From an uncultured Gammaproteobacteria bacterium (GTDB taxonomy: Bacteria > Patescibacteriota > Patescibacteriia > UBA9934): a stretch of DNA of 64,000 nt. The DNA lies in contig CAZREA010000004.1 in assembly GCA_964599455.1 (NCBI GenBank), positions 1,628-65,627 on the forward strand. Reading direction: 5' to 3'. Under the pieces are notes generated by a model. It did not search any database and was not told the DNA's origin. It saw nothing but the letters and a program-made list of their open reading frames with translations. The position numbers and the translations under genes are program-made. This document shows, piece after piece, positions 5,878 through 45,159 of this stretch; position 1 is the first letter of the stretch, and every line of letters starts with the position of its first letter.

Positions 5878-5898
5878 AAGTGAGAGTATTTTTGAGGT

Positions 5899-6425: not shown

Positions 6426-6426
6426 C

Positions 6427-6549: not shown

Positions 6550-6597
6550 TTTTCAGTACTTTTCTATCCGTTCGCCGTTACGTATCATTGAGGAGAA

Positions 6598-6629
6598 TAA
6601 AAATCCGGCATTACTTGCCGGATTTTTTT
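6598..6629. terminator. bidirectional intrinsic terminator
   Basis: ATCCGGCAttacTTGCCGGAT flanked by A-run and T-run. Confidence 0.6.
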
Positions 6630-6904
6630 CTGTGCACTTCTCGAACAAAATCTTCAACAAGCTCACTTACAAGACTGGGAGAAGCTTCTCTTCCGAATTC
6701 TAGAACGGTATCTTCATCGACAAAGGGATCATGATCACCTAGACCAACTACGGGAACAGGCTCTAGGCTAAATGGAGGTATCGGGGTTTCTTGGGAGCCT
6801 TTGCTTGGAGCCTTTATTTTTTCTACTTTTACGCGGAGACCTTGAGGAGGTTCTGTATTTTCAGCATTCATAAAATAGGAAAAGATATTACTTTTGTTTA
6901 TCAC
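6611..6904 (-). CDS. hypothetical protein (97 aa)
   Basis: ORF only; its C-terminal codons overlap the terminator hairpin. Confidence 0.3.
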   Translation of the reverse strand: MINKSNIFSYFMNAENTEPPQGLRVKVEKIKAPSKGSQETPIPPFSLEPVPVVGLGDHDPFVDEDTVLEFGREASPSLVSELVEDFVREVHRKKSGK

Positions 6905-7621: not shown

Positions 7622-7739
7622 AGAAGGACATTTTGATTAAATAGTAAACCGCAATGCCGAGAAGGCCAATATTCCACACCAACAGCATGATAATCCAGAA
7701 GTGCAATTTTGTATCTGAAGAAGGAGATTTTGCAGGCAT
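7614..7739 (-). CDS. 41-aa small membrane peptide (MPAKSPSSDTKLHFWIIMLLVWNIGLLGIAVYYLIKMSFYA), not in track
   Basis: Fills the gap between two minus-strand genes; stop overlaps the downstream start (ATGCCTAA). Confidence 0.3.
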   Translation of the reverse strand: MPAKSPSSDTKLHFWIIMLLVWNIGLLGIAVYYLIKMSFYA

Positions 7740-7744
7740 ACGAT

Positions 7745-8368
7745 TTACTCAAGACAAAGGAGTGGATTTGCTTCAAGTTGTGGCTGATTTGTATCGAGCA
7801 AACAGCTGTGTTCATCAAAAGAGATGAGCATGTTTTCAGGAATCTGATCATCTGTTAAAGAGGTTTCTTTTATCAGTGTGCCGTCGATAAGTCGATACAG
7901 AGCGACACGATTCTTATCAAGAATACCAACAATTTCTTGATTAGCCGAAAGAGAAATTTGTAAAGCATCAACGCTGAGTGTTGCGGCTTGCATTTGGCCA
8001 GTTGCAACATCAAACGGATAGATTTTTAAGAGCGTGAGATCGGTATCGAGAATCGCGCGAACATAGACGATACCTTGGTAGTTTTCTTGAGGAATCGCGA
8101 AAAGGCTAAAGTCGGTAATGTCATCGGTAAGCGAAGAAGAATAGAGGGTGCGGATGGTTTCTCCTTCTTCATTGACCTCAACGATCATGGCCTGGTTGCC
8201 GGAGATTTTGGTGTCTAACCGTGGAGGGGTGAGTGGTTCGGATGTGTCAGGCCTGGAGGGATTGGTAAGAAGCGTGTGAAATTCGAGCGTAAAAAAAGAA
8301 AAAAGCACGAGCACGATGGCAAACGCGCCGAGGATGAGTAGTCCCTCCATGACCCGATGGCTTTTCAT
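7745..8368 (-). CDS. membrane-anchored hypothetical protein (start moved to internal Met)
   Basis: TM helix then soluble domain; likely an operon with 6905..7621. Confidence 0.45.
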   Translation of the reverse strand: MKSHRVMEGLLILGAFAIVLVLFSFFTLEFHTLLTNPSRPDTSEPLTPPRLDTKISGNQAMIVEVNEEGETIRTLYSSSLTDDITDFSLFAIPQENYQGIVYVRAILDTDLTLLKIYPFDVATGQMQAATLSVDALQISLSANQEIVGILDKNRVALYRLIDGTLIKETSLTDDQIPENMLISFDEHSCLLDTNQPQLEANPLLCLE

Positions 8369-8397
8369 GTCGAAAATAAAAGATTTCTTCGAGTTTC

Positions 8398-9390
8398 TTA
8401 ATTGCGCATGCGTACCTCTCTCACCGAAATTGCTTTGCAAGCTTTAGCGCTTGGCCATGAGCGCAGTATACCAGTTTTCGCACCTACGTGTTGCACAACA
8501 CTGGCGGCGTTGAGTGTGGCAATTTGCATGGCGGTGATTACGTCATCACTCTTCATGACTCCAGCCACAAATCCTGATCCAAAGGCATCACCTGCACCCG
8601 TTTGCGAAATCGAAGCAACGTCGAGTGCACGCACAAAAAAGAGTTTTTTGTCATGCCACGCACATGCTCCTTGCGGCCCATCGGTGACCACGACATATGA
8701 TGGTCCGTCGGCAAGTGCAAGACAGAGTTCCGACGCATCTTTACTTGCTTTGGCGCTGAGCATTTGCGCCTCTTCTTTGTTGACCAGCAAGATATCGACG
8801 TCACGGAGTATCCGTCGGAGCGATGCTGCTTTTTTCAGTTCTCCCGCGCCAGGATTGCAGGCGATAGAGATTTTCTTTTTTTTGCAAAAATCGATGATTT
8901 TTTCGAGCAGTTCTACATTTCCGCCGAGTGAAGTGATATAGACCCAGTCGCCTGCTAGAGCCTTTGTAGGGATATCGGTTGAGCTAAACGCGACTGAGAC
9001 GCCGCGAAACACCAGAATCGTCCGCTCGCCATCGCTCGTCGTAAGAATAGTGCTGTAGCTTGTTTGGCCTTTTTTGTCGACACGAATGTTTGCGCAATTG
9101 ACGCCTGCTCTTTTAAGCTCGGTAACAATGTCTCGCCCCGGTTCGTCATTGCCGATTTTGGTGATGATGGAAGGAGAAAATCCTAATTGCGCAAAGGTGA
9201 CCGCAGCATTTGTAGCTCCACCGCCGGTTGAAAACACGCATGATTCCACATCGATTTTTGCCCCAAGTGTCATGCACTCAGCTTTGCCGCCGATAAATTG
9301 TGATGAACGAATAACTTGAAATGCCGGTGAGGCAAGAAACACATCGCGTGTGGCGGCACCGATAGTGGTGATGGAGGGAAGGGGGGGCAT
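8398..9390 (-). CDS. PfkB-family carbohydrate kinase (alternative start at 9462)
   Basis: 'GAGDAF' ribokinase-family motif; N-term 'ITTIGAATRD'. Confidence 0.7.
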   Translation of the reverse strand: MPPLPSITTIGAATRDVFLASPAFQVIRSSQFIGGKAECMTLGAKIDVESCVFSTGGGATNAAVTFAQLGFSPSIITKIGNDEPGRDIVTELKRAGVNCANIRVDKKGQTSYSTILTTSDGERTILVFRGVSVAFSSTDIPTKALAGDWVYITSLGGNVELLEKIIDFCKKKKISIACNPGAGELKKAASLRRILRDVDILLVNKEEAQMLSAKASKDASELCLALADGPSYVVVTDGPQGACAWHDKKLFFVRALDVASISQTGAGDAFGSGFVAGVMKSDDVITAMQIATLNAASVVQHVGAKTGILRSWPSAKACKAISVREVRMRN

Positions 9391-9449
9391 AGGAGGGGAG
9401 AAAGGGGAGAGAGGAAGGTGAATATGGAACGAAGAGTAGTGAAGCTTTT

Positions 9450-10286
9450 TTATTCCCCCCATTTTTCTACGAATCGTGTGAAGTTTTCCGCAATGCGATC
9501 AACGGCTTCATCTTCACTCATTGTACCTTGAACAATTTGTGCGATGGCGTCGGCAAAAATCGTTCGTCCAATGGCAAAACCGTCGACTACGCCACTGTCT
9601 CTGGCGATTTCGACATGTTGTGTCACGATTTTTTCATCTTCGCCACGTCCAAGAACGATGAGTTTTGCTGCTCTGGCGGCCTTTTTTACTTGTCCCCAGT
9701 CTTCCGCAGAGGGAAGACCTTCAAGTTTCCAAATAGCGGGATGAATGCCTGCTTCTCGAAGTGTGTTGATGGTTTTTGTGATGTGATTTGCTCGATCTTT
9801 GAAGGGAACGGAGAAAAGAAGTTCAAGCATCAGTGGAATATCGGCAGTGTCGAGTTGTGCTTGTAGCGATGCGAGTGTATCGATTTGTTCATCATCGATC
9901 TCGGGCGCATGCTCCCAGCGAACTAAGACCTTCGCACACGAAGCCCCGAGCAACCGCAACTGGGTTGCAGTTTCCTGACCATACAATAACGACAATGACG
10001 ATCCACCGCTCTTTTCCGTTGAAACCGCCGTAAATATTTTTTCTTCCCCTGCCTCTAAAAGAACTTCTCTCCCTGTTTCCTCATCAAGCAAAATACCAAA
10101 TGTTTCTTCATCAGACGACGCTTCGCGAACCCGCAAAAACGCTTGATAAATCAATCTTTTTAAATGACCTGCCTGTTGGCGATCCTGTTTGGAAAAGGGA
10201 TAGCTGACATGCATGATGTCTTTGGCAAATCCAGTGCGATGATCGAAGGGAAGAATGAAGAGGGGCATAGAGGGAGGGGGAGTCAT
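9450..10286 (-). CDS. aldolase-like TIM-barrel protein (DUF2090/LacD-like)
   Basis: N-term 'FILPFDHRTGF' resembles LacD/DUF2090 starts; sits beside the PfkB kinase like split IolC-type fusions. Confidence 0.5.
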   Translation of the reverse strand: MTPPPSMPLFILPFDHRTGFAKDIMHVSYPFSKQDRQQAGHLKRLIYQAFLRVREASSDEETFGILLDEETGREVLLEAGEEKIFTAVSTEKSGGSSLSLLYGQETATQLRLLGASCAKVLVRWEHAPEIDDEQIDTLASLQAQLDTADIPLMLELLFSVPFKDRANHITKTINTLREAGIHPAIWKLEGLPSAEDWGQVKKAARAAKLIVLGRGEDEKIVTQHVEIARDSGVVDGFAIGRTIFADAIAQIVQGTMSEDEAVDRIAENFTRFVEKWGE

Positions 10287-10816
10287 TCAGAAAAATCACT
10301 GCCGCGATATTCGTAAAAGCTTAAACATCCTGATCGCTTATGTGTTTTGCGTGGTGGAAAATCAGCCGGAGGCCAACCTTCAAAAAGCACAATAGCATTT
10401 TTAGCAAACGTCGGGCCAAGGATATGCGCAATGCGATTATGCGGTTCGGCCATGATAAAGGAGATGATGACGTCGGCTTTGCTTAAATCCGCCTTATAGA
10501 AAGAACCAAATTGGAGACGAATATTCTTATATATGTTTCCGTGAAGCTGTTTACGCAAAAAAGCAATGAAGAGCGGGCCAAGTGAGAGTTCAATGCCTTG
10601 AAAAGTGGCGCGAGGATATTTTTTGGCAAGCGCAAAGAGAATAGAGCCTGTTCCGCAGCCAATATCAACGACATGTTTGCCGGAAAGATCAGGAAGAATT
10701 TCGAGAATATGCTGAATTTCTCCTTTTCGCGTGGGAACCCATGGCGCGCCTTTCCACGCCGCCAGGCAAGCGGTGCCGAGGATGAGGAAAAGAAAAAGAT
10801 ACAGTGCAATCATCAT
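10283..10816 (-). CDS. class I SAM-dependent methyltransferase with N-terminal TM helix
   Basis: 'VVDIGCGTGS' motif I. Confidence 0.65.
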   Translation of the reverse strand: MMIALYLFLFLILGTACLAAWKGAPWVPTRKGEIQHILEILPDLSGKHVVDIGCGTGSILFALAKKYPRATFQGIELSLGPLFIAFLRKQLHGNIYKNIRLQFGSFYKADLSKADVIISFIMAEPHNRIAHILGPTFAKNAIVLFEGWPPADFPPRKTHKRSGCLSFYEYRGSDFSE

Positions 10817-11514
10817 ATTTTACCGGTTGCTTCGAGCAGTTCCCGTTCTTCCTCTTCGGTAAGATGACGCCATTCACCGACGTGCAAATTGCCAAGCTTA
10901 ATATGCATAATGCGATCACGTCGCAAGGACACGACGTCGTAACCGACCGCTTCACACATACGACGAATTTGCCGATTGCGCCCCTCGATGATTGTAATCG
11001 CAAAACTATTCACACTTGTTTGCACCACTCGTGCTGGCAGCGTTTTACGTCCATCAAGCATAATGCCGCCACGCATCCGCTCGAGTGCGTTCTGATCAAT
11101 TTCACGATCAACAATCACCGCATATTCTTTTTCGTGCTTTTCTTCGGCACGCAAAATACGATTGACGATGTCGCCATCATTGGTCAAAAGAATGAGTCCT
11201 GACGAAGCAACGTCGAGTCTGCCAATATGGAAAAGTCGATCTGGATAACCAATCGCATCAATGATGTTGTCATTGGCCTTGGGATCACTCGTGCAAATAA
11301 TGCCCACCGGTTTGTAATAGGCAATATAGACGCGGGTGGTGACGGGTACGACTTTTTTTCCTCGAACGCGAATATCTTCGCTACCTTCAACTTTTTGTCC
11401 AAGTATTGCTTGCTGGTTATTGATGGTAATTGCACCTTGTTCGATTAAGCGATCTGCTTCGCGTCGCGAACAGACACCGGCATCAACCAAAAATTTATTG
11501 AGACGAATGGGCAT
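10813..11514 (-). CDS. rRNA pseudouridine synthase (RsuA/RluB family)
   Basis: S4 domain 'LNKFLVDAGVCSRREA' and catalytic 'GRLD'. Confidence 0.8.
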   Translation of the reverse strand: MPIRLNKFLVDAGVCSRREADRLIEQGAITINNQQAILGQKVEGSEDIRVRGKKVVPVTTRVYIAYYKPVGIICTSDPKANDNIIDAIGYPDRLFHIGRLDVASSGLILLTNDGDIVNRILRAEEKHEKEYAVIVDREIDQNALERMRGGIMLDGRKTLPARVVQTSVNSFAITIIEGRNRQIRRMCEAVGYDVVSLRRDRIMHIKLGNLHVGEWRHLTEEEERELLEATGKI

Positions 11515-20991: not shown

Positions 20992-21576
20992 TCAGATCTC
21001 GTCGGGACGATCGATTCCGAACTTGGCCTGTACGGCCCTGACCCGTTCGGTGAGCTTGATGATCTCCTCTCGGCTGGAGAAGCCGTCGATCGTGAAGTCG
21101 ATGTCCTCTTCCAACAGGAGCTTGAGCATCCTGATCTCGCGCTCGAGCCCGTGGGCCAAGAGCTGTGCCATCGGGTCTTCCGGAGTATTCACCAGGGAGT
21201 CGAGCATGCTCTCAACCTTCTCCTTGTAGGTGAGCGGGACGGAGGACGAGCGCCTGCGTCGTCGCAAGAGTTTGCTCAAGCGGTGCAGCAGGTTCCAGGG
21301 GATGGCGTCCGCCAGGAAGAGGAGAAGCTTCAGCCTGCGGGACTTTGCGTAGGCTACTCCTATCACACCGTGGTTGACCTCGAACAGGCCGACGTCCTCG
21401 TCGTGACTGTTCCAGACGATGTAGATGCCGTCTGGCAGCGCGTCGGTGTCCGCGGTGCTGATGATGACCCCGTTGTGCTGGATATCTACGTTGAAGTTCC
21501 CGTGTTCGCCCCGCCGCCGTACGCGATAGGAGCCAGGGTTCAGGACTCTTCGGCGATCACCTGTTCTCTCGTTCAT
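20992..21576 (-). CDS. GC-rich cassette gene A1 (194 aa); shares N-terminal domain with A2 and A3
   Basis: GAGGAG SD before internal ATG; 'SYRVRRRG..LPDGIYIVW..GLFEVNHGV' N-domain; GC-rich. Confidence 0.55.
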   Translation of the reverse strand: MNERTGDRRRVLNPGSYRVRRRGEHGNFNVDIQHNGVIISTADTDALPDGIYIVWNSHDEDVGLFEVNHGVIGVAYAKSRRLKLLLFLADAIPWNLLHRLSKLLRRRRRSSSVPLTYKEKVESMLDSLVNTPEDPMAQLLAHGLEREIRMLKLLLEEDIDFTIDGFSSREEIIKLTERVRAVQAKFGIDRPDEI

Positions 21577-21757
21577 GGCACTCTCCTCAATGTACGGGTG
21601 ATTGGTGGTACTTGACGACAGTTCTTTGTCGTCACCTTTTATCTTCCTTTTTGTAAAGAAAGGCAAAAGGTGACGTTGAAGCAACGGAAGATAGTAGAAA
21701 AGACCGGAGATTTTGTAAAGGAGAGAGGAAATCAAGAAGAGGAGTCCCATAAAAACA

Positions 21758-21795
21758 GTTCGCGGTCGATCCCAAGAGGAATCGACCGCGTGAAC
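21758..21795 (-). terminator. GC-rich intrinsic terminator H2 after A2
   Basis: GTTCGCGGTCGAT-loop-ATCGACCGCGtGAAC, T-run on minus strand. Confidence 0.6.
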
Positions 21796-21807
21796 GAGAG
21801 GTTTCTT

Positions 21808-22269
21808 CTACGAAGGTGCGTGCGCAGACTCGTTGCCGAGCTCGGCCTCATGGTTGGGGGAGCGCAGAAGGGTGTCGAACGGACTTCTGGTGGACAGTGC
21901 GAGCTCCTCGAACACGCCTTGGCCCTCCTCGTCGTCCTCCACCACTCGCAGGGACGGCCGGGGTCTGCCGACCACTTGGAGTGCTGGCCCTTGGCCTTTG
22001 CCACCCTGGATGAGTCGTGGTGGGTAGCTCGACGTCGAGCGCACCTCCTCGTTGCTCTTGGCGTTGCGCGGTACACCTCCGACCACCGCGAACGTCCCGA
22101 CGACCACCTGGTCCAAATAGAGGACCTCGTAATCTCCGTCGAGAAGCGGGCGCGAGCACTGTGTGACCCGCCCACTCCTGTACTCGATCGTGACGCGAGC
22201 GATTCCTTTGCTCTCGTCTCCCCGCGGCCGTACTCTGTAGACTCCTGACTTCTCAGCTTCTGTAGTCAA
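21808..22269 (-). CDS. GC-rich cassette gene A2 (153 aa), TTG start with GGAGG SD
   Basis: 'VYRVRPRG..PLLDGDYEVLYLD..GTFAVVGGVP' N-domain shared with A1 and A3. Confidence 0.55.
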   Translation of the reverse strand: MTTEAEKSGVYRVRPRGDESKGIARVTIEYRSGRVTQCSRPLLDGDYEVLYLDQVVVGTFAVVGGVPRNAKSNEEVRSTSSYPPRLIQGGKGQGPALQVVGRPRPSLRVVEDDEEGQGVFEELALSTRSPFDTLLRSPNHEAELGNESAHAPS

Positions 22270-22387
22270 CTCAGCCTCCGCTTTGCGTTCATTGAACGCG
22301 TCAGGTGAATAGTTATCGTCTTAAGGACGGCGCATCTTACACGCAAAAGATGTTTTTTGTAAAGGTTTTTGGCTATAAAAACATAAC

Positions 22388-22417
22388 GCGGTCGACTCTC
22401 CGAAGAAAGTCGACCGC
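22388..22417 (-). terminator. GC-rich intrinsic terminator H3 after A3
   Basis: GCGGTCGAC-loop-GTCGACCGC, T-run on minus strand. Confidence 0.6.
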
Positions 22418-22501
22418 ACGAAGGGTGAGTTGCCTGCAGCGGTCAGGCGTCGCCGACCTCCTTTCTGGGGTGTAGTGAGCGATGGGGGAAGTAGTTGTTG
22501 C

Positions 22502-23221
22502 TCAGTCCGGGGTGGAGTCTTGCTCGACCGGTTCGTCCTCGATCTCGACGGTTGGCTCGGACTCCTGCGAGGCTGCCTCGCTGGTGCTCGAGGTCGGGAA
22601 CTCGGTCGCCTTGAGGGCGTCGAGTCGTCCCAGGAGCGTGTCGAGGTCCTCCGGGCTGCTGAAGCCGGCGGTTTTGAGCACGTCCTGATAGCCCTCGCTC
22701 TGTTTGCGGATCTCTACGGCCAACTCGCGGAACGGAATCATCATCGCCTCGAGCCCCTCCATCGTCCGCGACCAGTCCTGTACCATCTCCTCGATGAGTC
22801 TCGGCTCCAGCTTTTGTATCTTGCCGCAGTGGGGGCAGGACTCGCCTTTCGCCGCCGCCGCGAGCATCTCCAGGGGCATGAGCTTGCGCTCTGCCCACTG
22901 CTTCCAGGAGGATGGTTCACGCTTACCGCCTGCGCTGAAGCGCAGGAACACGACAGGACCACCTGCCAACAGCAGGTCCAAGTCGAGCTCGGCCCTTCTG
23001 TACAGCCGCCTTGCCTGACCGGGCACACCGTTCTGCACGGTGAAGCGGCCGATCTGCGTTCCCTCGTAGAAGATATCGTAGTCCCCATCCGTGAGGGGGG
23101 ACTCGCCAGTGGAGAAGATCTCGGCGGTCTGGCTGTCGATCTCGACCGGAATGATAGCCTCCTGGCCCTGCAGACCGACCATGTAAGCGGAACGGGTGGG
23201 TTGTTGTTGGGGTTCGGACAA
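22502..23221 (-). CDS. GC-rich cassette gene A3 (~239 aa; start chosen at TTG with GAGAGG SD; track start 23311)
   Basis: 'AYMVGLQG..PLTDGDYDIFYEG..GRFTVQNGVP' N-domain; C-terminal 'CPHCG' and acidic tail. Confidence 0.5.
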   Translation of the reverse strand: MSEPQQQPTRSAYMVGLQGQEAIIPVEIDSQTAEIFSTGESPLTDGDYDIFYEGTQIGRFTVQNGVPGQARRLYRRAELDLDLLLAGGPVVFLRFSAGGKREPSSWKQWAERKLMPLEMLAAAAKGESCPHCGKIQKLEPRLIEEMVQDWSRTMEGLEAMMIPFRELAVEIRKQSEGYQDVLKTAGFSSPEDLDTLLGRLDALKATEFPTSSTSEAASQESEPTVEIEDEPVEQDSTPD

Positions 23222-23278
23222 GGTTGCCTCTCTCAGCCCGTGTGGGCGTTTGGTGATTGGTGCGTGGACAGCTTTTTC

Positions 23279-23331
23279 TTCGCCGTCACTTTCTGCTTTT
23301 GAAGCATTCAAGTTCAGAAAGTGACGGCGAA
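23279..23331. promoter_or_regulatory. perfect 17-bp inverted repeat (TTCGCCGTCACTTTCTG / CAGAAAGTGACGGCGAA, 19-nt spacer)
   Basis: Sits about 60 nt upstream of A3 and between divergent genes; operator-like or hairpin. Confidence 0.4.
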
Positions 23332-25050: not shown

Positions 25051-26066
25051 CGAAGTTTTTTCTTCATTGGCTACAGGATGAAATCATGATCCCGCTCTAT
25101 CAAAAGCGAGCGAGTGATACTTTGGATAGCATGCGCACCATTGGAGAAATTGATGCGTTGTGCGTTATTCCACAAAGCCCACCGCATCATGCGGAAGGCG
25201 GAACGATCTCAGCGCATCTTTTGCGTGCGCTCACTGCTCTTGAAGGCATTGCTGCGGGTGTATCGATATTGTTTGTTGAAGAATTTGTCCGTGAACGACA
25301 ATTGGAAGGTTTCTTTTTGCGCCTGGAAAAAACGATCAAAGAAAATACTCCTCTTTTGCGCGCCTATATTCTTTGTCACGACTTAGGCAAACAAGATACG
25401 GCAACACACGACGGTACTTGCTGGCATTATCCGCAGCATGCCCATGTAGGTGCAGCAGAAGCGTATGCAGCGGTGCGCAGTGAAATATTGTCGCGTTGTG
25501 GTGTGGAGGTTGCGCATGCAAAAATGCTTCGTGAACTCGTTCGTTATCACATGCAAATTATTGCGCGTATCGAAAAAACCGATAATGTGGCTCTTTTGCA
25601 TTTTTTAGAAAACGCCGCGGATCGTCAGGGAATACACACCAAGCGCTTTTTGGCATTACTGCCCGCGTGCCTGTTTCTTGATGCCATTTGCGGCAGTCTT
25701 ACAAAACAAGAGGAGCAAGAATCAGCGCAAACGTCTTTGCTGATCGCCTACGCTAAAGCTGAGCGTGAAGCCTGTCCTTCGCAGGCGATTGAGGATAATT
25801 TGTTGATTACCCGCAAACGCCGAACGCGAGTTCGAGAGATTTTGCGAGGGGAAGGATTGGATTTTGAAGAGATATTTAAACTGTTGCACACACCTTTTGG
25901 TGAAGCGCGCGGTCCGGTAGCTCGAGCGCTTACGCGATATATCAAGAACATTGCTGATGACCAAGACGCGGCAGTGATTGGGATCGAATACGCAGAAATA
26001 ATCGCTGAGCGGGCAGCCGAGGTTCGTCGTCGATTGGAAGAGGAGGGGTTGTTAGGATATGTGTGA
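25047..26066 (+). CDS. HD-domain phosphohydrolase-like protein
   Basis: 'ILCHDLGK' HD motif and additional His clusters. Confidence 0.55.
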   Translation: MTKFFLHWLQDEIMIPLYQKRASDTLDSMRTIGEIDALCVIPQSPPHHAEGGTISAHLLRALTALEGIAAGVSILFVEEFVRERQLEGFFLRLEKTIKENTPLLRAYILCHDLGKQDTATHDGTCWHYPQHAHVGAAEAYAAVRSEILSRCGVEVAHAKMLRELVRYHMQIIARIEKTDNVALLHFLENAADRQGIHTKRFLALLPACLFLDAICGSLTKQEEQESAQTSLLIAYAKAEREACPSQAIEDNLLITRKRRTRVREILRGEGLDFEEIFKLLHTPFGEARGPVARALTRYIKNIADDQDAAVIGIEYAEIIAERAAEVRRRLEEEGLLGYV

Positions 26067-26487
26067 TTTTCCTATGCTCATTCGCAAAAGCGCCCTCCTC
26101 CTCCTTAATCCCGACTCAACGCAATTTTTAGTTACCCGAAAAAACGACAGCACGGTGACTGACTGGCTGCTGCCCGGCGGGACGATTGAAGAAGGGGAGA
26201 CGTTGATCGACGCGTTAGTGCGAGAAATTTGGGAAGAATTGCAATGCGAAGTCGATAAAACAGGTATTGAATTGATTGGCGAATACGAAGCGCCTGCTGC
26301 CGGTCGTCCGGGGCAAATTGTGCACATTACGCTTTTCCGAGCAACGATTGCTGGTACTCCACGTGCTTCGTCGGAAATTAAAGAATTAGGTTGGCTTTCG
26401 AAAGAAGATGTGACGAATCCCGAGGCAAGTGAAACGATTCGATTGCATCTGATTCCCGATTTGGTGAAACGTGGCATTCTTTTGTAA
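26059..26487 (+). CDS. Nudix hydrolase
   Basis: Nudix box 'GGTIEEGETLIDALVREIWEELQ'. Confidence 0.75.
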   Translation: MCDFPMLIRKSALLLLNPDSTQFLVTRKNDSTVTDWLLPGGTIEEGETLIDALVREIWEELQCEVDKTGIELIGEYEAPAAGRPGQIVHITLFRATIAGTPRASSEIKELGWLSKEDVTNPEASETIRLHLIPDLVKRGILL

Positions 26488-27055: not shown

Positions 27056-27997
27056 ATGGACGCCGCATCATGGGATCAACACGTGGCGCAATTTGCCCCG
27101 CCGTTTGGCGCGTTTTTGCAATCATGGGCCTGGGGCGAGGTGCAGATGTTGTTGGGTTTTCCTGTGAAAAAGATTTTTCGAGAAATTGATGGCAAACATA
27201 TTGTTGCACAAGCCATTTGGCAACCGTTGCCGCTTGGCACTTCGTATTGGTTTCTTCCCAAGGGTCCGCTCGGTGATGCGGATTCTCAGGCCATGTTGGC
27301 GGTTTTAAAGGAGGAATTATCCGACGGTGCTTTTATGAAACTTGAACCCACGCATGTTCCTGCTGATGCTCGGTACGCCGATGAACGACATCCCGCGCAC
27401 ACGGTTATTGTTCCGTTACAGGCTGATGCAGAAATGATGCTTGCTGCCATGAAGCCCAAGACCCGTTACAACATTCGTCTTGCGCAAAAGAAAGGTGTGC
27501 AGGTTGAATATGCTGATGCGTCGCAATTGGAGCGGTTTTTGCGTTTGATGCGAGTAACTGCCAAGCGTGATGGCTTTCATTTGCACACTGCAGATCGGTA
27601 TCGTGCGATTGTGGAGAAATTTTCTGGTAATAACTGTCGCGCCTTTCTTGTTTTTGCCACGTATGAAGGGAAAGATCTTGCCGCCAACATGATGATCGAT
27701 GCCTTTGGTACACGAACATATTTGCACGGCGCTTCGTCGAACGAAGACCGCGATGTGATGGCGCCGTATGCATTGCATTTCGCATTAATGCGCGACGCGG
27801 CACAGCGCGGATTGCACGCCTATGATTTTTGGGGCGTTGCGCCCGAAGATGCGGACGCTTCGCATGCCTGGTTGGGCATCACGCGCTTTAAGCTCGGCTT
27901 TGGTGGCGAGCGCATCAGTATGCCGGGAACGTTTGATGTGCCAATTTCCAAAATGAAATACGGCATCTACACCCTTGCACGAAAAGTTCGTCGATAG
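27056..27997 (+). CDS. FemAB-family peptidoglycan interpeptide-bridge peptidyltransferase-like protein
   Basis: FemX-like GNAT-fold duplication; ~310 aa. Confidence 0.65.
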   Translation: MDAASWDQHVAQFAPPFGAFLQSWAWGEVQMLLGFPVKKIFREIDGKHIVAQAIWQPLPLGTSYWFLPKGPLGDADSQAMLAVLKEELSDGAFMKLEPTHVPADARYADERHPAHTVIVPLQADAEMMLAAMKPKTRYNIRLAQKKGVQVEYADASQLERFLRLMRVTAKRDGFHLHTADRYRAIVEKFSGNNCRAFLVFATYEGKDLAANMMIDAFGTRTYLHGASSNEDRDVMAPYALHFALMRDAAQRGLHAYDFWGVAPEDADASHAWLGITRFKLGFGGERISMPGTFDVPISKMKYGIYTLARKVRR

Positions 27998-28404
27998 AAA
28001 ATAAAAAATCCCGAATCTCGGGATTTTTTATTATGGCTTTTTTGGTCCTCCTCGACGATGTTTTTTCCTGAAGTTGCTGCTAAATCTTTATAAGAAGGCA
28101 CGGGTGCAGATGATGTAGGAAGAATATTTTCAGTATTTACATCACCGTCGCTTGGTTCAACGAATCTATCAATAAAGTCTTCTTGATCAAGCCCATCATA
28201 TAATTTGAATCCTAGTGGAGTAAGTCCGCCCTCAAGAAGGTCTTTTAGCATTGTACGTTTTGTTTGAAGAGTGGCGCTCTGCCATGACACGGGGAATCCT
28301 TCTGTTGCATACTGCCTGGCAACTCTCTCTATACGTTCTTCGTCCATTGTTTTAACTTTACTTGCTAAAGATTCTTTTTCGATTATTCCTCTTGAGATTT
28401 CCAT
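27967..28404 (-). CDS. hypothetical protein (doubtful: ORF reads through the terminator hairpin)
   Basis: ORF only. Confidence 0.25.
   Translation of the reverse strand: MEISRGIIEKESLASKVKTMDEERIERVARQYATEGFPVSWQSATLQTKRTMLKDLLEGGLTPLGFKLYDGLDQEDFIDRFVEPSDGDVNTENILPTSSAPVPSYKDLAATSGKNIVEEDQKSHNKKSRDSGFFIFYRRTFRARV
28003..28031. terminator. bidirectional intrinsic terminator
   Basis: AAAAAATCCCGAatctCGGGATTTTTT. Confidence 0.65.
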
Positions 28405-28478
28405 AGGGATAATATTTTAAAGCTAGAATAGGAAGAAGTATATCGAAGTAAAGGATCTATTCACAGTGTAAAAAGATT

Positions 28479-28509
28479 GACGCCCGGCCTCACGAGGAGG
28501 TCGGGCGTC
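28479..28509 (-). terminator. GC-rich intrinsic terminator H4
   Basis: GACGCCCGGCCtcacgaggaGGTCGGGCGTC, T-run on minus strand; near-identical stem to H5. Confidence 0.6.
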
Positions 28510-28515
28510 ACGGTT

Positions 28516-29781
28516 TTACGCCTTCACTTCCGCCGAGTTGCGGATGGCGGTGGAGCTGATGTCCCACCGCCCTTTGATCTCGACGAACAGATCTTCGTAG
28601 CCTTCCGGGATACCGACGTCCCGCAGCGTTTCGAACCGGTTGCCGTTGGCCCGGCCCGCCACGTAGAACTTCGTTCCGAGCTCCCGGAATCGCTGACAGA
28701 TGTCTGCCGGCGTCAGGTCCTCGGTGCAGAAGTTCGGGTCGAGGAGGCGTCGCAGGGTGTCGACCCCCACCAGGAAGCCGACACTGGGGAAGAGAGCTGC
28801 TTTCTTGAGATAGATGCCCGCTTCCTTCAGCACGATCACGGCCCTACGACCGAAGAAGGTGCTGACTCGTCTGGCCATCTCGTCATCTGGCACCATGCCT
28901 TTGACGGGGTGGTCGGCGTTGAGCTGGCACACGACCTCCATGCCGGTCTGTTCCTCGCAGGCTCGGGCCATGGCTGCGTGGCCGCGATGCCAGTCATTGA
29001 ACGATCCGGCAAAGAGGATGTGTTTTTTGCCGTCGATGTGGTCGAGTCCGTAGCGGCTGCCATCCGGCCAGTAGACCGGCTCGCGGTAGAGCGTGCTCGG
29101 TTCGATTTTCGGTTCGATGATCCTCGGCCTGAGTACACAGCCGCCTTCGGTTCCCGTGATGTTCCCCTCCTCGATGAGGTCATCGTCCAGAGGGATCTGC
29201 GGCAGTCCAGCGGCGAACAGCAGGAGGTTGAGGCCGATGAGATCGACCTGGTCACCCTGTCGGTTGCGGACTTCTGCTCGCTGGCGAAAGGCCTCATCTT
29301 CATCTATCGGCTGGTTATGTAGCTTGTGGGTCTTGAAGAAGCCCACGTGCACGACCAGGAAGAAGTCTGGCAGGCGCAGGGCCACCCAGACCTCGTCGCT
29401 GCCCTTACGATCTTCACGTTTGCCATCCTTCTCGCGCTCGGTGGCCACACTGGCGGTTCCACCGAGACCAGCGGGCGTGCCCGTTCTGCTTTCGGCCTTC
29501 ATGATCTCGATTGATGTCTCGAAGGCTTGCTGAGCCATGGCCATTGCGGTCTCGCGAGCCACGGACTTGGGGACGCGGCGACTCAGGAGGTCGCCGAGGG
29601 CGTGACCGGCGTAAGGCAGGCCGCCGTTCAGGATGAGCCCGCTGCATCCGGGCACCTGCCACAATATCTTCTGCAGCCCTGCGCCCGCGCCGGTCATGTC
29701 GAGGGTCAGGCGCAGCGGGATATTGGTCTTGAGGAGGGCGAGCACGGCCTTGAAGGTGGGGGTTTTGGTGATATGGGGCAC
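28516..29781 (-). CDS. fusion protein: unknown Gly-rich N-terminal domain plus C-terminal NMN/NaMN adenylyltransferase (NadD/NMNAT family); GTG start with AGGAG SD
   Basis: 'ILFAGSFNDWHRGH' (HxGH nucleotidyltransferase) and C-terminal 'ISSTAIRN'; N-domain 'DMTGAGAGL..LNGGLPYAGHALG' unassigned; GC-rich. Confidence 0.55.
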   Translation of the reverse strand: MPHITKTPTFKAVLALLKTNIPLRLTLDMTGAGAGLQKILWQVPGCSGLILNGGLPYAGHALGDLLSRRVPKSVARETAMAMAQQAFETSIEIMKAESRTGTPAGLGGTASVATEREKDGKREDRKGSDEVWVALRLPDFFLVVHVGFFKTHKLHNQPIDEDEAFRQRAEVRNRQGDQVDLIGLNLLLFAAGLPQIPLDDDLIEEGNITGTEGGCVLRPRIIEPKIEPSTLYREPVYWPDGSRYGLDHIDGKKHILFAGSFNDWHRGHAAMARACEEQTGMEVVCQLNADHPVKGMVPDDEMARRVSTFFGRRAVIVLKEAGIYLKKAALFPSVGFLVGVDTLRRLLDPNFCTEDLTPADICQRFRELGTKFYVAGRANGNRFETLRDVGIPEGYEDLFVEIKGRWDISSTAIRNSAEVKA

Positions 29782-29930
29782 GGGAACTCCTGTTGTGATG
29801 TGAGTGTGATATGAGTTATGAACGAAGACTTTTCGAAAAATGCTCGCCGAAGCGAGGAAAGAAGGTAACAAAAAATTGACCAAAAGTCAATTTTCCTCAG
29901 TAATATTGGCAATAAGATTTGTACAAAAGA

Positions 29931-30022
29931 AAACAGCGCACCCTCAGAGTCGGCAGGAGCGTTTCACCCCGGGGGTGTTGGCTGTTTTCCTGTCGTACTC
30001 GACCCCGCAAGTCGGGGAGGGT
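29931..30022 (-). terminator. large GC-rich multi-hairpin 3' element after 30034..30459
   Basis: Outer 10-bp stem GCGCACCCTC/GAGGGTGCGC enclosing CACCCCGGGGGTG and CCCCGcaagtCGGGG; T-run on minus strand. Confidence 0.45.
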
Positions 30023-30033
30023 GCGCACGTTTG

Positions 30034-30459
30034 TTAATAGAATTTTGGCATGTTGGCGATGAGTGGGAGGCGACCCATCTCCTCTTTGTTCAGTGTCACG
30101 CGCCCGTCGTAACCGTTCATCCAGAAGCGGAAGGAGAGTCCTTGATGGTGTAGTGGCTCGCCCACAATCTCGGTGAACAGATGCCCATATTGCATGAGTG
30201 CGTACACCAGTGCTGCTTCGAGATTGCCGCCGAAGCTGAACAGATTAATGTTCAAGAATCGCAGCAGATCATCTCGTGAAATTCTTTGCGGAAATGGAAT
30301 CTGTGCATCCCCGCAAGTCAGCACGAGTGCGAAGTCGTCGGACTTCATGTCGAGAGGTTCCGCGAATCGAATCCCGACTGTTCCGTGAATGATGAGATTC
30401 CGGTCTTGTTGGACGTTGAGTTTTGGCCTGAGGCCCTTTTTTACGACTCTGTCTTCCAT
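30034..30459 (-). CDS. GC-cassette hypothetical protein (141 aa; internal ATG with AGGAG SD)
   Basis: ORF with SD; no recognisable domain. Confidence 0.45.
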   Translation of the reverse strand: MEDRVVKKGLRPKLNVQQDRNLIIHGTVGIRFAEPLDMKSDDFALVLTCGDAQIPFPQRISRDDLLRFLNINLFSFGGNLEAALVYALMQYGHLFTEIVGEPLHHQGLSFRFWMNGYDGRVTLNKEEMGRLPLIANMPKFY

Positions 30460-30568
30460 GACATCTCCTGTTGTTCGAAGGCGGAAGGTGTTCGAAAGCA
30501 ACCGTGAAGTATGGCATAAAATCTCTTTTTTGTCCAAAAAGTTTCAAAAGATATAAGAAAAAAAAGTT

Positions 30569-30600
30569 AACGCCCGGCCTCTTTGCAGAAGTCGGGCGTT
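30569..30600 (-). terminator. GC-rich intrinsic terminator H5
   Basis: AACGCCCGGCCtctttgcagaaGTCGGGCGTT, T-run on minus strand. Confidence 0.6.
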
Positions 30601-30636
30601 ACGGTTGTGTGAAGTGGGATGTGGCGATGATGAAGC

Positions 30637-31173
30637 TTACACCTTCACGCGACGGGGAGCGAGGATGTATCCGTCGCTGCCGTCCCGTGTAATGTCCGCC
30701 CCTTCGCGGACTTGCTCTGGTGCGATGCGCAGGGGTATTGGAGGGCGGCCGGCTGCGTGCAGGAGAAGACTGCTCGCCACGATGATCCGCGTCTCGCTGC
30801 GAGGATTGCGGAATGCGAGATCGACCTCTGCGTCGATGACGAAGTCGACACAGACGACGAGCACATCTTTCTCGCCAGCAAACAGAGTGATGAAGGCCGT
30901 GTCGCCCTCCGAAAGACCGATGCCGATCGCTGCGCCCGGTTGCTCGCGAGCGTGAATATACCTTCGTACTCGCTCCCAAGCAGCACCTGCCTGATCGATG
31001 GCCTCCGCCTCGCTGGAGTTTCGCGATTTGTTGGAGATGAGGGATCCAAGCAGGAGTCCTGCTTGAGAAAAGGTGTGTCCAACAAGGGGCGCGGTTGCGC
31101 CTCCCTCGATCCCGATCACGAGGTCGGGTCGTTGCCTGGCTAAACCTCGCAGGGTTCTGTGCGGTGTGGTCAC
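30637..31173 (-). CDS. GC-cassette hypothetical protein (178 aa; GTG start with GAGGAGGA SD)
   Basis: 'LVIGIEGGATAPLVGHTF..AIGIGLSEGD' motifs, unassigned; GC-rich. Confidence 0.45.
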   Translation of the reverse strand: MTTPHRTLRGLARQRPDLVIGIEGGATAPLVGHTFSQAGLLLGSLISNKSRNSSEAEAIDQAGAAWERVRRYIHAREQPGAAIGIGLSEGDTAFITLFAGEKDVLVVCVDFVIDAEVDLAFRNPRSETRIIVASSLLLHAAGRPPIPLRIAPEQVREGADITRDGSDGYILAPRRVKV

Positions 31174-38696: not shown

Positions 38697-38957
38697 AGGG
38701 GAGGAACAGATGGGACGGATTGTAGACGGATTTAGGGGATATGGAAAGGGTGCTGAATTGAATCTAAAATTATTGACTTTCCTGCCGTTTTTGTTACCTT
38801 AGTCTATCGTTCAGAGAACATTGTTCGTGTTGAACGTAGCGTTTTGGACCTAAAAAGATGGATCTAAAACGCCGTGCTCAACCAATGGCCTGCATCATTC
38901 CGGTATCTATCGGAAGAAATGCCTGCCCACGGCTTTCCAAAAAGGAGGCTCGTCGCC

Positions 38958-39860
38958 ATGTCGACACGCCTTGCTGATTTGCCTTATGGAGTCGTCGATC
39001 AGCTGCATCGCCAGCTCGCCAGCAACCTGACCGCCGAGGAGGGACGGAAGCTTCATGATCGCCCCGAGCTCTGGAAGGTCATGGTCGAAGCCCTGCGCAG
39101 GCAGATAGGGCCTAAACTTGTTCACGGTCGGTTCACCCCGCTCGCGGACAAGATCGCGATGGTGAAGACGTGGCCCGGCATCAACCCGGCCGACGTCGAC
39201 GCCGCGTTCGCCACGGCGATGGAGAACGGGACGATCGCCGGCTACGAGGCCGAGGTCGGGAAGAACCCGTTCCTCGACATCGTCGTCACGGTCTACCGCG
39301 AGTCCATCCCCGCCACCGTCGTGTACGCGCGCGAGCGCATGCGTGAGGTCTGGGGTGACAAATACAGCGAGTGGGAAGCAGCCTACGCGCAGGACGTCGA
39401 TGACGACCGCGTGAAGGCCATCCCGGGCGCGAAGCAGTTCACTCCCAACCGGATCGTCATCGAGGTTGTCGACTTCGGGGCGAACTGGAACCTGAAGGAC
39501 GGCGTCGTGCTTGAGGAGGTTCAGAAGTCCCAGGCTGCTCAGCTCGCGAGTTTTGCCGTGATCTACAACGCCGTGCAGAGCCCCAAGTGGCTCTGGCAGA
39601 TGGACGGTAAGAAGGTACCGTATGCCCTCGTGGCTGCGCTTCTGCTCAACGTGCCGAACCACAGAAGAGATAGGGAGACAGAGGAGATGGAGCGTGCCAT
39701 GATGTATGCGCTCATCATCGACAGGCCACTGCCTTACGAGGCGTGGCGTTACTCACCGAGCGTCTTGCGCGACGGTGGCGAGGCGAGGCTGAGCGGCGAC
39801 TACGTCGGGTGCCGTTTCCACAACTGCGCCGTGCCTGTCCTCCGGGAGTACAAGCGCTAG
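38958..39860 (+). CDS. GC-cassette hypothetical protein (300 aa; internal ATG with AGGAGG SD)
   Basis: Visibly GC-rich; no recognisable domain; two hairpins downstream (GTCCGCgaaGCGGAC, GATACGT..ACGTATC). Confidence 0.5.
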   Translation: MSTRLADLPYGVVDQLHRQLASNLTAEEGRKLHDRPELWKVMVEALRRQIGPKLVHGRFTPLADKIAMVKTWPGINPADVDAAFATAMENGTIAGYEAEVGKNPFLDIVVTVYRESIPATVVYARERMREVWGDKYSEWEAAYAQDVDDDRVKAIPGAKQFTPNRIVIEVVDFGANWNLKDGVVLEEVQKSQAAQLASFAVIYNAVQSPKWLWQMDGKKVPYALVAALLLNVPNHRRDRETEEMERAMMYALIIDRPLPYEAWRYSPSVLRDGGEARLSGDYVGCRFHNCAVPVLREYKR

Positions 39861-42873: not shown

Positions 42874-43368
42874 GCTTGGCGCGCCGGACGGCTATGCGTG
42901 GTTTACCACGTAAGGAAAGTCCGAACACCCTTTGTGCAGCAATGCACAATGAGCAAAGGCGTTGTTAACGACAACCAGGAAGAGATCGCAAGATCAGAGC
43001 CTAGGGAAAGTCTCATCTCGACGCAAGAACGGATGAGGTCAAAATCGGCGGGAAACGGCCGACAATGACGCAACAGAGACATTCAAACCTCCTTCGATTT
43101 GTTCATGGAGGCAAAAGGTGAAACGTGATGGGGACGCAAGTTTCCCATCTCCCTGCATGGTGACATGCAGGGTGGCAAACCCGCCTTGGTGCAAGAGCAA
43201 GATTGGTAGCTCGCTTGCCCCCAACGGAGCTCCGACCCACTTTGCGCAAGCTAGGTGGGGAGGAGCGAAGTGGGGCTTAGGTCACTGGCAACAGTGATCA
43301 CAGAGAAATGGCCGTCTCCCCCGAGCGTAAGCGAGGGGCCAGACAAAATTCGGCTTACAGGCGCGTCC
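42874..43368 (+). ncRNA. rnpB: RNase P RNA
   Basis: 'GGAAAGTCCGAACAC' (CR-I) and 'ACAAAATTCGGCTTACAG' (CR-IV/V); promoter and terminator flank it. Confidence 0.75.
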
Positions 43369-43409
43369 AAACAAAAACACACCTTCGTCAGCGAAGGTGT
43401 GTTTTTGTT
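43369..43409. terminator. bidirectional intrinsic terminator after rnpB
   Basis: AAACAAAAACACACCTTCGtcagCGAAGGTGTGTTTTTGTT. Confidence 0.7.
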
Positions 43410-43412
43410 GTA

Positions 43413-43434
43413 GGGGCTGGGCGTGCCCAGCCCC
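43413..43434. repeat. perfect GC-rich palindrome GGGGCTGGGcgtgCCCAGCCCC at island edge
   Basis: 9-bp perfect stem. Confidence 0.5.
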
Positions 43435-43860
43435 TGACGCGATCGGAATAAAAAAGAGCTCAAAAGAAGATCTCTCGAGGGCAAAAAGCAAAGGTTATAC
43501 AAAACGTGCATTTACAAAAAGGATGTCCTCGGCAAATAATCGGTATATGTTCCACCGTTTTCGCAAGATGAGCGGTGGGACATGGATGGCGTGCAAAGGT
43601 CCGTGCTGGGCGGATAATGCCTACGTTCTCAAATGGGTGAGGGCCTGGGTGTATTCAAGCCTTTGTACGCCATCCTCTCTTTTTGTCTGGGCGGGACCTG
43701 GAATGATGCATTTCGCGATAGCCTTCAGAAGGTCCTCGCTGAATGGTTTTCGCGGCGATGCGCTTGTCGAGTGGTTCGGCAAGCGGTCCGGTGTTGTTCC
43801 AGGTCCCGTTTTTATCCCACGCGCGCTCGTGGGATTTTCCTTAAAACATGAACCCCCGCC

Positions 43861-43890
43861 ACGACTCGGTCGGGCGGGGGTCACGAATGG
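43861..43890 (-). terminator. GC-rich terminator-like hairpin H6
   Basis: CCCCCGCCacgactcggtcGGGCGGGGG. Confidence 0.5.
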
Positions 43891-43896
43891 TGCTGG

Positions 43897-44514
43897 CTAC
43901 TTCACTGCTTCGGCCGCTGCGGCGTCGGCAGGAGGAGAAGCGGGGATGTCGCCGTAGTAGACATCGAGCTCACCGATCGGCGCAGGGCTTTCGGGGGCGA
44001 TGAAGAGAGAGCCCTTCTGCTTGAAGCGCGGAACTCCCTCGTCCTCCTTATTCCTCCTGGGGATGACATTGCCCGGCTTTCTGCGGGGGAGTCTGACTTT
44101 CGTCCAGCCCCTCTGTGTGATTGCCTCCACTCGCTTCGGCCTCTCCAGCTCGAGGTCCGTGTAGTGGCGAGAGAATTCGCCGGGCGACCACGACTGCATC
44201 GCTCGACACCGCTGAAGCAGCGTCTCGGCGTGCTCGATCTGTGTCTTGATGTCCTGAGGATCTTCTGCCGTACGGACTCCGTTCCGCAGAGCCCGCATGC
44301 GACGAATCACCAATGTGAACGCATGGTGCGTTCCGTTGATCTTCATTCCGTCACGAATGCGTTCTGCGGTAGCGGCAAATTGCGAGATGGTCCGAGTAGC
44401 TGCGTTTTTACGACCTCGATCCTTTTCCTCTTTGGCAGGCTGAGGGGGATGATGTTTGCGGGGGTGCCAGGTGGACGTGTGCAATGAAACGACCCTCTTG
44501 TCTCTGCCCGACAT
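43897..44514 (-). CDS. GC-cassette hypothetical protein (205 aa; start uncertain, no SD found)
   Basis: GC-rich ORF with a downstream hairpin; basic, no domain recognised. Confidence 0.4.
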   Translation of the reverse strand: MSGRDKRVVSLHTSTWHPRKHHPPQPAKEEKDRGRKNAATRTISQFAATAERIRDGMKINGTHHAFTLVIRRMRALRNGVRTAEDPQDIKTQIEHAETLLQRCRAMQSWSPGEFSRHYTDLELERPKRVEAITQRGWTKVRLPRRKPGNVIPRRNKEDEGVPRFKQKGSLFIAPESPAPIGELDVYYGDIPASPPADAAAAEAVK

Positions 44515-44595
44515 GGGAAGAGTTCATCTAAGTTGCCGCAAAAGAAAGAAAAAAGCAAATCACGGATGTGTTTTAAAAAAAGAACACCACTCGCA

Positions 44596-44639
44596 CGCAG
44601 CAGAGACGAGGCCGCAACAAGCGGTGATGTTCTGCTGCG
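44596..44639 (-). terminator. GC-rich hairpin H7 after 44674..45096
   Basis: CGCAGCAGA..TCTGCTGCG with inner CCGCaacaaGCGG. Confidence 0.5.
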
Positions 44640-44673
44640 CCACAGGTGGCGAAAGGTTTGTAGCTCGTTGGAG

Positions 44674-45096
44674 CTACTTGTTGTCGATGAAGCGCAGGGA
44701 CGTCTGCAGATCGCAGGCGTTCTTGCTTCTCTCGGCGGCTTCTTTGCTGTCCTGAGTATTGGTCTCCCAGAGTACGTAGGTATTTCCTTTGGCTCCGCAG
44801 GCCTCGGTATGGCCTACGAAGAGCGTAACGCCGGTTGCGCCCTGGACGACTCGCACCTTTTGACTGACGTCATTCAGGGAGCGTGCCGTCTTTTCTCCGA
44901 AGATGATTGCGAGCACTTCCGAGGTCGTCTTGCTGGCGACCTGAAAATTCACGCCGTGTGGTGTGGCGTAGATTTCGCCACCATACCCCGGAATCTCCAC
45001 GTAGACGCGATCAGTCTGCGAGAGCTTGCTCGGCTTGGGCAGCTCCTCGGCCTTGGCAATCGCGAAAGACAGGAGAATGAAGAACAAACTACACAT
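44674..45096 (-). CDS. GC-cassette secreted hypothetical protein (~140 aa; ATG with AGGTG SD)
   Basis: Signal peptide 'MCSLFFILLSFAIAKA'; GC-rich. Confidence 0.45.
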   Translation of the reverse strand: MCSLFFILLSFAIAKAEELPKPSKLSQTDRVYVEIPGYGGEIYATPHGVNFQVASKTTSEVLAIIFGEKTARSLNDVSQKVRVVQGATGVTLFVGHTEACGAKGNTYVLWETNTQDSKEAAERSKNACDLQTSLRFIDNK

Positions 45097-45159
45097 GTTC
45101 ACCTCATTTTGATTGAGTGAAATTTAGGATACGAAGCAATCAATCAGTATAATAAAAAT

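Follow-up and report, generated by a model that had tools for sequence, protein, structure and literature searches.

A GC-rich bacterial gene encodes a CinA-like/NMNAT fusion protein of a rare, mainly phage-borne family

Three adjacent genes, here called A, B and C, lie on the minus strand of contig CAZREA010000004.1 of an uncultured bacterium (NCBI GenBank assembly GCA_964599455.1), within a stretch of 64,000 nucleotides (contig positions 1,628 to 65,627) that is referred to as the window. Gene A encodes a fusion of a CinA-like domain with a domain of the nicotinamide mononucleotide (NMN) adenylyltransferase (NMNAT) type and is the main subject of this analysis. The three open reading frames (ORFs) that an earlier note on this DNA had described were confirmed at the stated coordinates, on the minus strand (Table 1), and genes called independently in another assembly of this sequence likewise have products of 421, 141 and 178 amino acids (aa). 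The exact protein encoded by gene A (P0001) was found in public assemblies, and the peptides quoted in the earlier note ('ILFAGSFNDWHRGH', 'ISSTAIRN', 'DMTGAGAGLQKILWQVPGCSGLILNGGLPYAGHALG' and 'LVIGIEGGATAPLVGH') are all present.

The Shine-Dalgarno sequences, read from the sequence, are ACAGGAGttcccGTG for A, ACAGGAGatgtcATG for B and GAGGAGGaccacGTG for C, and an AGGAG or GGAGG box is located 6 nt 5' of the start codon in all three genes. Each gene has a separate promoter-like region and its own terminator, a stable hairpin followed by a U-run or, in the case of B, a larger branched structure, in agreement with the strong ribosome-binding site and terminator per gene described earlier. Therefore, the three genes do not form an operon. 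The description of the genes as GC-rich cassettes holds for A (GC content 0.60-0.66) and C (~0.60), while B is only slightly enriched (~0.51); the spacers have a GC content of 0.44-0.49 and the flanks of 0.38-0.47, and the genome background is ~0.47-0.50. A repeat search found no flanking direct repeats or att-like sites around the A-B-C block.

The near-identical terminator stems that had been noticed before belong to A and C. The two terminators are about 81-89% identical over ~47 nt (86-89% in the direct repeats D3 and D6) and have the stem CGCCCGAC..GGCCGGGCG in common, which has two matches in the window with none expected. The terminator was the sole shared part when A and C were compared at the DNA level, and a recent duplication of the coding sequence was therefore rejected. 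A GC-rich outer stem of 14 bp (outer inverted repeat I4) closes the branched element after B, which is probably a terminator as well. Its size far exceeds that of a usual terminator, and no Rfam family matched it. The fold of the A leader is not better than that of shuffled sequences (z -1.4), and Rfam scans with gathering and E-value thresholds detected no riboswitch in the leaders, which fold like shuffles.

Table 1. Genes, protein domains and structured elements of the A-B-C block (positions in the window)
Feature	Position	Strand	Description
Gene A	28516-29781	minus	421 aa, GTG start, TAA stop; two-domain CinA-like + NMNAT fusion
CinA/PncC-fold domain, A residues 1-195	29197-29781	minus	keeps T30, S47, Y57, T109, R172; L62 at the catalytic Lys position
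NadD/NMNAT-type nucleotidyltransferase domain, A residues ~251-421	28519-29031	minus	H265-x-G267-H268, K294, S409-S410-T411..R414
Intrinsic terminator of A	28471-28517	minus	stem GACGCCCGaCC/GGcCGGGCGTC, then U-run; -28.3 kcal/mol, z -6.1
AT-rich promoter and leader of A	29782-29900	minus	TTGACT.., AGGAG 6 nt 5' of GTG
Gene B	30034-30459	minus	141 aa, ATG start; orphan protein
Branched structured element after B	29925-30035/30040	minus	~110 nt, -48.9 kcal/mol, z -4.8, then U-run
Gene C	30637-31173	minus	178 aa, GTG start; degenerate stand-alone CinA-like domain
Intrinsic terminator of C	30560-30606	minus	-22.1 kcal/mol, z -4.6, then U-run; homologous to the A terminator

Direct scans of the A protein against Pfam and NCBIfam identified the nucleotidyltransferase domain only (Pfam PF01467, residues 256-415, E 1e-4, above the gathering score), confirming the NadD/NMNAT-type C-terminal domain proposed in the earlier note, and did not detect a CinA domain. 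The CinA identity of the N-terminal domain emerged via homologues, profiles and structure. A search of 5.8 billion protein clusters yielded 20 homologues with 25-33% identity and more than 90% query coverage, and the two-domain architecture therefore defines a conserved family. Among its 21 members, PF02464 (CinA) matched the N-terminal half in 13 (best E 3.7e-9) and PF01467 was found in 20; the JGI name of one homologue, P0009, is 'NaMN adenylyltransferase/NMN deamidase PncC' (NaMN, nicotinic acid mononucleotide). When the family profile was compared with the PDB, the NadD structure 1KAM (E 2.3e-6) and the CinA structures 2A9S (E 5.5e-5) and 4CT8 were recovered. The AlphaFold2 model of A reached a pLDDT (predicted local distance difference test) of 87.7 and a pTM (predicted template modelling score) of 0.83, and the best 21 Foldseek matches of this model in the PDB were all CinA/PncC structures. 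The segment 'TGAGAG' of A corresponds to the PncC block 'ESCTGG', and the two domains are joined by a ~55-residue beta-rich linker. Thus, the 'unknown Gly-rich domain', which the earlier note could not place and did not take to be obviously PncC, is a divergent member of the CinA/PncC domain family. A CinA-NMNAT fusion was not described in the searchable literature. A is a member of a rare, experimentally uncharacterised family of CinA-like + NMNAT fusions.

In the CinA protein of Agrobacterium tumefaciens (AtCinA), the catalytic dyad is proposed to consist of S31 and K63, and the phosphate of NMN is bound by S48, Y58 and R145; the activities of the S31A, K63A, Y58A and R145A mutants were undetectable (PMC5384747). 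Equivalent residues in the A family were identified by HMMER and MAFFT alignments to 2A9S and 4CT8, which were in agreement. The position of S31 is taken by T30 in A and by Thr in 16, Ser in 3 and Ala in 2 of the 21 members, while the K63 column is variable, with Leu in A and Lys in none of the members. Accordingly, the Ser/Lys dyad of PncC is not present in the family, and E30 and C32 of the PncC block P-I are both replaced. G46, S48 and Y58 correspond to G45, S47 and Y57 of A, of which S47 and Y57 are found in 21/21 and G45 in 20/21 sequences, and T105 aligns with T109. The NMN phosphate-binding residues are therefore retained, R145 by position only as the invariant R172. The family alignment shows no conserved acid/base residue in the domain besides these Thr, Ser, Tyr and Arg residues. 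From this pattern we infer that the CinA-like domain may still bind a pyridine mononucleotide but would not deamidate it by the PncC mechanism.

Compared with PncC and the C-terminal domain of CinA (PF02464; A. tumefaciens 2A9S, Thermus thermophilus 4CT8), A has the same fold at low sequence similarity and is itself under the Pfam detection threshold. While PncC stands alone or follows a COG1058/MocF domain, the domain of the A family is fused to an adenylyltransferase, and it differs by the absence of Lys63, the replacement of Glu30 and Cys32 and a Thr in most members instead of Ser31. These differences bear on the possibility that A is a bifunctional PncC-NadD enzyme converting NMN to NaMN and then to nicotinic acid adenine dinucleotide (NaAD), which would be amidated by NadE. 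The JGI name of P0009, the Thr or Ser at the nucleophile position in 19/21 members, the invariant phosphate-binding residues and a C-terminal domain nearest to bacterial NadD structures are in line with such an enzyme, and consecutive pathway steps are the classical rationale for a fusion. We nevertheless consider it unlikely, since the Lys base is needed in both proposed PncC mechanisms, as illustrated by the inactive K63A mutant (PMC5384747), and is absent from all 21 members with no conserved substitute, and since E30 and C32 are lost too. Moreover, the phage gene follows Nampt, where deamidation of NMN would require NadE, and no NadE was seen in the two loci concerned (L016 and L017, see below).

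The adenylyltransferase domain is better preserved than its partner in its motifs, as all NMNAT motifs that are conserved in the family (H/T-x-G-H, K294 and SS(T/S)xxR) are present in A. In the first motif (H265-R-G267-H268 in A), the Gly and the second His are invariant and the first position is His in 18/21 and Thr in 3/21 sequences, while in the C-terminal ISSTxxR motif (I-S409-S410-T411-A-I-R414 in A) the two Ser residues are invariant and the Arg is found in 20/21. In its fold, this domain resembles NadD/NMNAT more than PPAT, cytidylyltransferases or NadM, with bacterial NadD enzymes as the nearest structures. Identity to bacterial and eukaryotic NadD/NMNAT enzymes (PF01467) is only ~20%, and A differs from them by its N-terminal CinA-like domain and linker. 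The NCBIfam NadD models gave 11-17 bits on A, below their cut-offs of 112-315 bits (17 vs 240 for one of them), and A is not an orthologue of the housekeeping NadD.

The family is rare and is found mainly in very large phages. Among 185,579 genomes representing one species each, a single hit was obtained, on a 4.6-kb metagenome-assembled contig. In contrast to this, IMG/VR contains nine loci with the fusion, seven of which are on contigs of 234-485 kb, and a further 38 loci came from a metagenome scan, with several of these on contigs already found. The closest relative of A is encoded by a huge phage in GenBank (LR745208.1, 485 kb; 32% identity, E 2e-44), and a full-length match in BFVD is a protein of an uncultured Caudovirales phage annotated merely as 'cytidyltransferase-like'.

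The gene neighbourhoods of the homologues connect the fusion to NAD metabolism. In L016 and L017 the gene order is NrtR-like Nudix, Nampt and fusion; Nampt also lies immediately upstream of the fusion in L033 and at a distance of 2.4 kb in L032. Two Nudix genes precede the fusion in L004, L007, L014, L028, L031 and L039, while in L027 a single Nudix match lies upstream, at the edge of the contig. Overall, Nampt and/or Nudix genes lie beside the fusion in at least 11 independent loci. Together with the NMNAT domain and the PncC-family domain, these neighbours support the earlier description of the block as NAD-related. The N-terminal domain belongs to an ordinary NAD-salvage partner family and homologues lie beside salvage genes, so that the ordinary alternative, which the earlier note had set against its own idea of a novel function, is for the most part what was found.

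Other neighbourhoods lack this connection. In L003/L047 and L009 (L003, 433 kb, 4239-10387; L009, 447 kb, 4332-9970), the fusion has RtcB on its upstream side and a calcineurin-like phosphoesterase on its downstream side, and in L008, a 68-kb viral contig, it adjoins an RlaP-family nucleotidyltransferase with a weak LAGLIDADG match (5305-9074). A link between NAD supply and RNA repair is possible in these cases. In L002, unannotated genes and an ATP-dependent DNA ligase are found near the fusion, and L012, L015 and the window are bacterial housekeeping contexts. The phage-like contig of L017 additionally carries a separate PPAT-like nucleotidyltransferase (GSFDPFTFGH) and an Acb1/2H-phosphoesterase-like protein (3631-4194, 10369-10926); the gene for the latter, 2 kb from the fusion, is a candidate anti-CBASS gene (CBASS, cyclic oligonucleotide-based antiphage signalling system).

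Both the RNA-repair neighbours (RtcB, the calcineurin-like phosphoesterase and RlaP) and the close sequence scores of PPAT and NadD would be explained if A adenylylated a substrate other than NMN or NaMN, with a CinA-like domain that binds ADP-ribose, an RNA-end-derived nucleotide or a signalling nucleotide, and if the link to NAD salvage were only partial. This appears quite improbable to us, as 18 of the 21 members have the HxGH form of the first motif seen in NadD/NMNAT, while the aligned PPAT chains have TNGH, and as the loci with Nampt and/or Nudix beside the fusion are numerous and independent.

NARP2 consists of Nampt and Nmnat, and it was shown experimentally that phages rebuild NAD+ in this way against NADase-based defences (bioRxiv 10.1101/2024.02.11.579819). 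In L016, L017, L032 and L033 the fusion follows or lies near Nampt on contigs that are phage-like (checked for L016 and L017), and the two-step logic of NARP2, as in Vibrio phage KVP40 (NadV/NatV), would apply, in which nicotinamide and phosphoribosyl pyrophosphate yield NMN and then NAD+. The Nampt-linked loci therefore resemble a variant of NARP2. They differ from it in their Nmnat component: KVP40 has an enzyme of the NadM-Nudix type, and these loci have instead a NadD-type NMNAT joined to a CinA-like domain that lacks the Lys. The window locus, in contrast, does not qualify as NARP2: it has no Nampt and is not on a phage genome, as indicated by genes for IleRS, RuvA, FemAB, RNase P RNA and tRNAs.

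With NadM-Nudix, NadR and the NadR-like enzyme of NARP3, A shares the coupling of an NMNAT to a domain that handles a neighbouring NAD metabolite, but the partner in A is a CinA-like domain, probably inert as a deamidase, and not a Nudix or ribosylnicotinamide kinase domain. NARP3 itself, which consists of PnuC and a NadR-like enzyme (PMC13464706), is unrelated to A and was rejected as a match. The cyanobacterial 'NMNAT-C' was rejected as well; the accessible part of its description does not present it as a CinA fusion. A is thus an uncharacterised addition to the known NMNAT fusion enzymes of NAD salvage and not a new kind of system.

Our interpretation, which we hold with moderate confidence, is that A is an NMNAT of NAD salvage with a mononucleotide-binding, non-deamidating CinA-like domain, belonging to a family that is mainly phage-borne and was here acquired horizontally. 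Judged by its motifs, the C-terminal domain would transfer AMP from ATP to NMN, or possibly NaMN, yielding NAD+ or NaAD. The most likely role of the N-terminal domain is the binding of NMN or a similar nucleotide, be it for substrate capture, regulation or dimerisation, and not deamidation; such a binding or regulatory role is favoured because a working deamidase would divert fresh NMN to NaMN and create a need for NadE. In large phages, the fusion would act after Nampt and an NrtR-like Nudix protein, or after two Nudix proteins, and complete the route from nicotinamide via NMN to NAD+. In the host bacterium, A would be transcribed alone and probably serves NAD salvage from scavenged NMN.

Several points weigh against this interpretation. 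Bacterial NadD enzymes, to which the closest structures belong, usually prefer NaMN, and the preference of A for NMN or NaMN cannot be read from its sequence. A is also somewhat atypical within its family, having Asp for the Pro of GSFNPxH and Glu at the conserved R130, and the equivalence of R172 to AtCinA R145 was drawn from position alone. In addition, several huge-phage loci have RNA-repair genes (RtcB, RlaP and phosphoesterase) and not NAD genes as neighbours, and the window contains no Nampt; its only other NAD gene is a generic Nudix gene (26059-26487).

Genes B and C had been described earlier as encoding two unknown small proteins. This was confirmed for B, while C is related to A: a comparison of C with the profile of the N-terminal domain of the A family gave an hhalign probability of 96% (E 4.4e-9, 145 columns), and in BLASTP the A segment 'VRNRQGDQVDLIGL..LPQIPL..' is 34% identical to the C-terminus of C over 56 aa. 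The earlier note had likened a segment in the middle of A to a domain shared by its A1-A3; hhalign probabilities for the ORFs at 20992, 21808 and 38874 against the A family are below 1%, arguing against any relation, and the segment resembles C instead. According to the MAFFT alignment, C has lost the first motif together with its helix and has Gln at the Tyr57 equivalent. No homologue other than C itself was found among the 5.8 billion protein clusters. By its alignment to the A family, C is a degenerate stand-alone paralogue of the CinA-like domain of A, which would have arisen as a duplicate of this domain with the same terminator and decayed since.

B, in contrast to C, is an orphan without demonstrable link to A (hhalign probability with the A family 0.5%). 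Apart from one artefact, only B itself was recovered among 5.8e9 clustered proteins and, by full phmmer, among 1.84e9 representatives, and there was no Pfam, NCBIfam, PHROG or PADLOC match. The artefact, P0025, was rejected as a homologue, being a low-complexity repeat protein that is matched eight times by one 35-residue stretch. The single-sequence AlphaFold2 model of B is unreliable (pLDDT 54.7). No counterparts of B or C were found beside the A homologues at ~45 homologous loci.

The block is surrounded by bacterial housekeeping genes. On one side lie genes for IleRS, a TrmB-family regulator, Nudix, RuvA and FemAB, on the other side glycosyltransferases and DUF4012; RNase P RNA and four tRNAs are found elsewhere in the window. 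We take the gene content of the window (split transketolase, PfkB, FemAB, DUF4012 and many glycosyltransferases) to be like that of candidate phyla radiation (CPR)/Patescibacteria genomes. No phage structural gene or integrase is present in the window near A-B-C, tblastn identified no Nampt in the 64 kb, and neither PHROGs nor PADLOC gave a match for A, B or C. The GC content of A (0.62 vs 0.50 in the flanks) exceeds that of its surroundings by more than at any other locus compared; the excess of the fusion over its flanks is 6-12 points in the three bacterial contexts and about -1 to +6 points in phage-like loci. A is best read as a GC-rich horizontal acquisition in this bacterial genome, a direction of transfer that we infer.

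The earlier note had also suggested a link to defence or counter-defence. The phage homologues agree with this in that they lie beside Nampt (L016, L017 and L033; 2.4 kb away in L032) and, in L017, near an Acb1-like gene, but nothing in the window does, with no PADLOC or PHROG match, no Nampt and housekeeping flanks. It is very unlikely, in our view, that A, B and C form a mobile NAD-directed conflict module, either a counter-defence cassette left by a phage or a defence/immunity unit in which B and C modulate A. Such a module would account for three adjacent genes on the same strand, clearly GC-rich in A and C and slightly so in B, with a terminator shared by A and C, for phage relatives that adjoin Nampt and, in L017, lie 2 kb from an Acb1-like anti-CBASS gene, and for the uniqueness of B and C to this genome, which is often seen with fast-evolving conflict genes. 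It is difficult to reconcile with the individual promoter-like regions and terminators, which exclude an operon, with the missing integrase, phage structural genes, Nampt, flanking repeats and PADLOC or PHROG matches, with the absence of B and C from the homologous loci, and with housekeeping neighbours such as FemAB, RuvA and glycosyltransferases.

A further-reaching proposal, which we regard as doubtful, is that the fusion represents a mainly phage-borne branch of NAD+ reconstitution ('NARP2b'), in which the fused adenylyltransferase is fed by a pseudo-deamidase that captures NMN or acts as a sensor of the products of NAD breakdown, and which was domesticated by a CPR-like bacterium with C and B as modulators.

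If our interpretation of A as a salvage NMNAT with a non-deamidating partner domain is correct, the fusion would be a third NMN adenylyltransferase architecture after NadM-Nudix and NadR, present in phages and some ultra-small bacteria, and would add to the phage modules known to restore NAD+ in the face of NADase-based immunity. It would also provide a natural case of an enzyme domain turned into a ligand-binding module, derived from PncC with loss of the deamidase chemistry, and a candidate step of NAD salvage in CPR-type bacteria, in which the supply of cofactors is little understood. The window locus alone would amount to no more than a salvage gene obtained by horizontal transfer and its decayed paralogue.

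Directly downstream of A, an AT-rich ORF of 145 aa (GC content 0.40) is located on the minus strand at 27967-28404. This ORF and FemAB are convergent and meet at a perfect 15-bp bidirectional terminator (28000-28032), and the ORF has one weak PHROG match of unknown function (phrog_9104, E 1.4e-3); the defence models of PADLOC-DB 2.0 matched neither this ORF nor A, B or C. Other GC-rich single-gene islets are found in the window at 3082-4275, 20992-23302, 38874-39860 and 43897-45120, with a GC content of 0.54-0.63 and a third-position GC content of at most 0.80. These islets have no Pfam, PHROG or PADLOC match, and the ORFs 20992-21750 and 21808-22269 show a weak mutual match (36% over 59 aa). 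Repeated horizontal acquisition is one possibility for their origin.

Two RNA genes of the window are unusual. A tRNA-Ile with the anticodon TAT (UAU) is encoded at 55921-55997, while in bacteria AUA is usually read by a lysidine-modified CAU anticodon and UAU is uncommon. The class A RNase P RNA (42876-43373) is 498 nt long compared with 367 nt for the model and scores 111 bits, barely above the gathering score of 100, which implies large insertions; the GC content of its region (window 43001-44000) is ~0.55.

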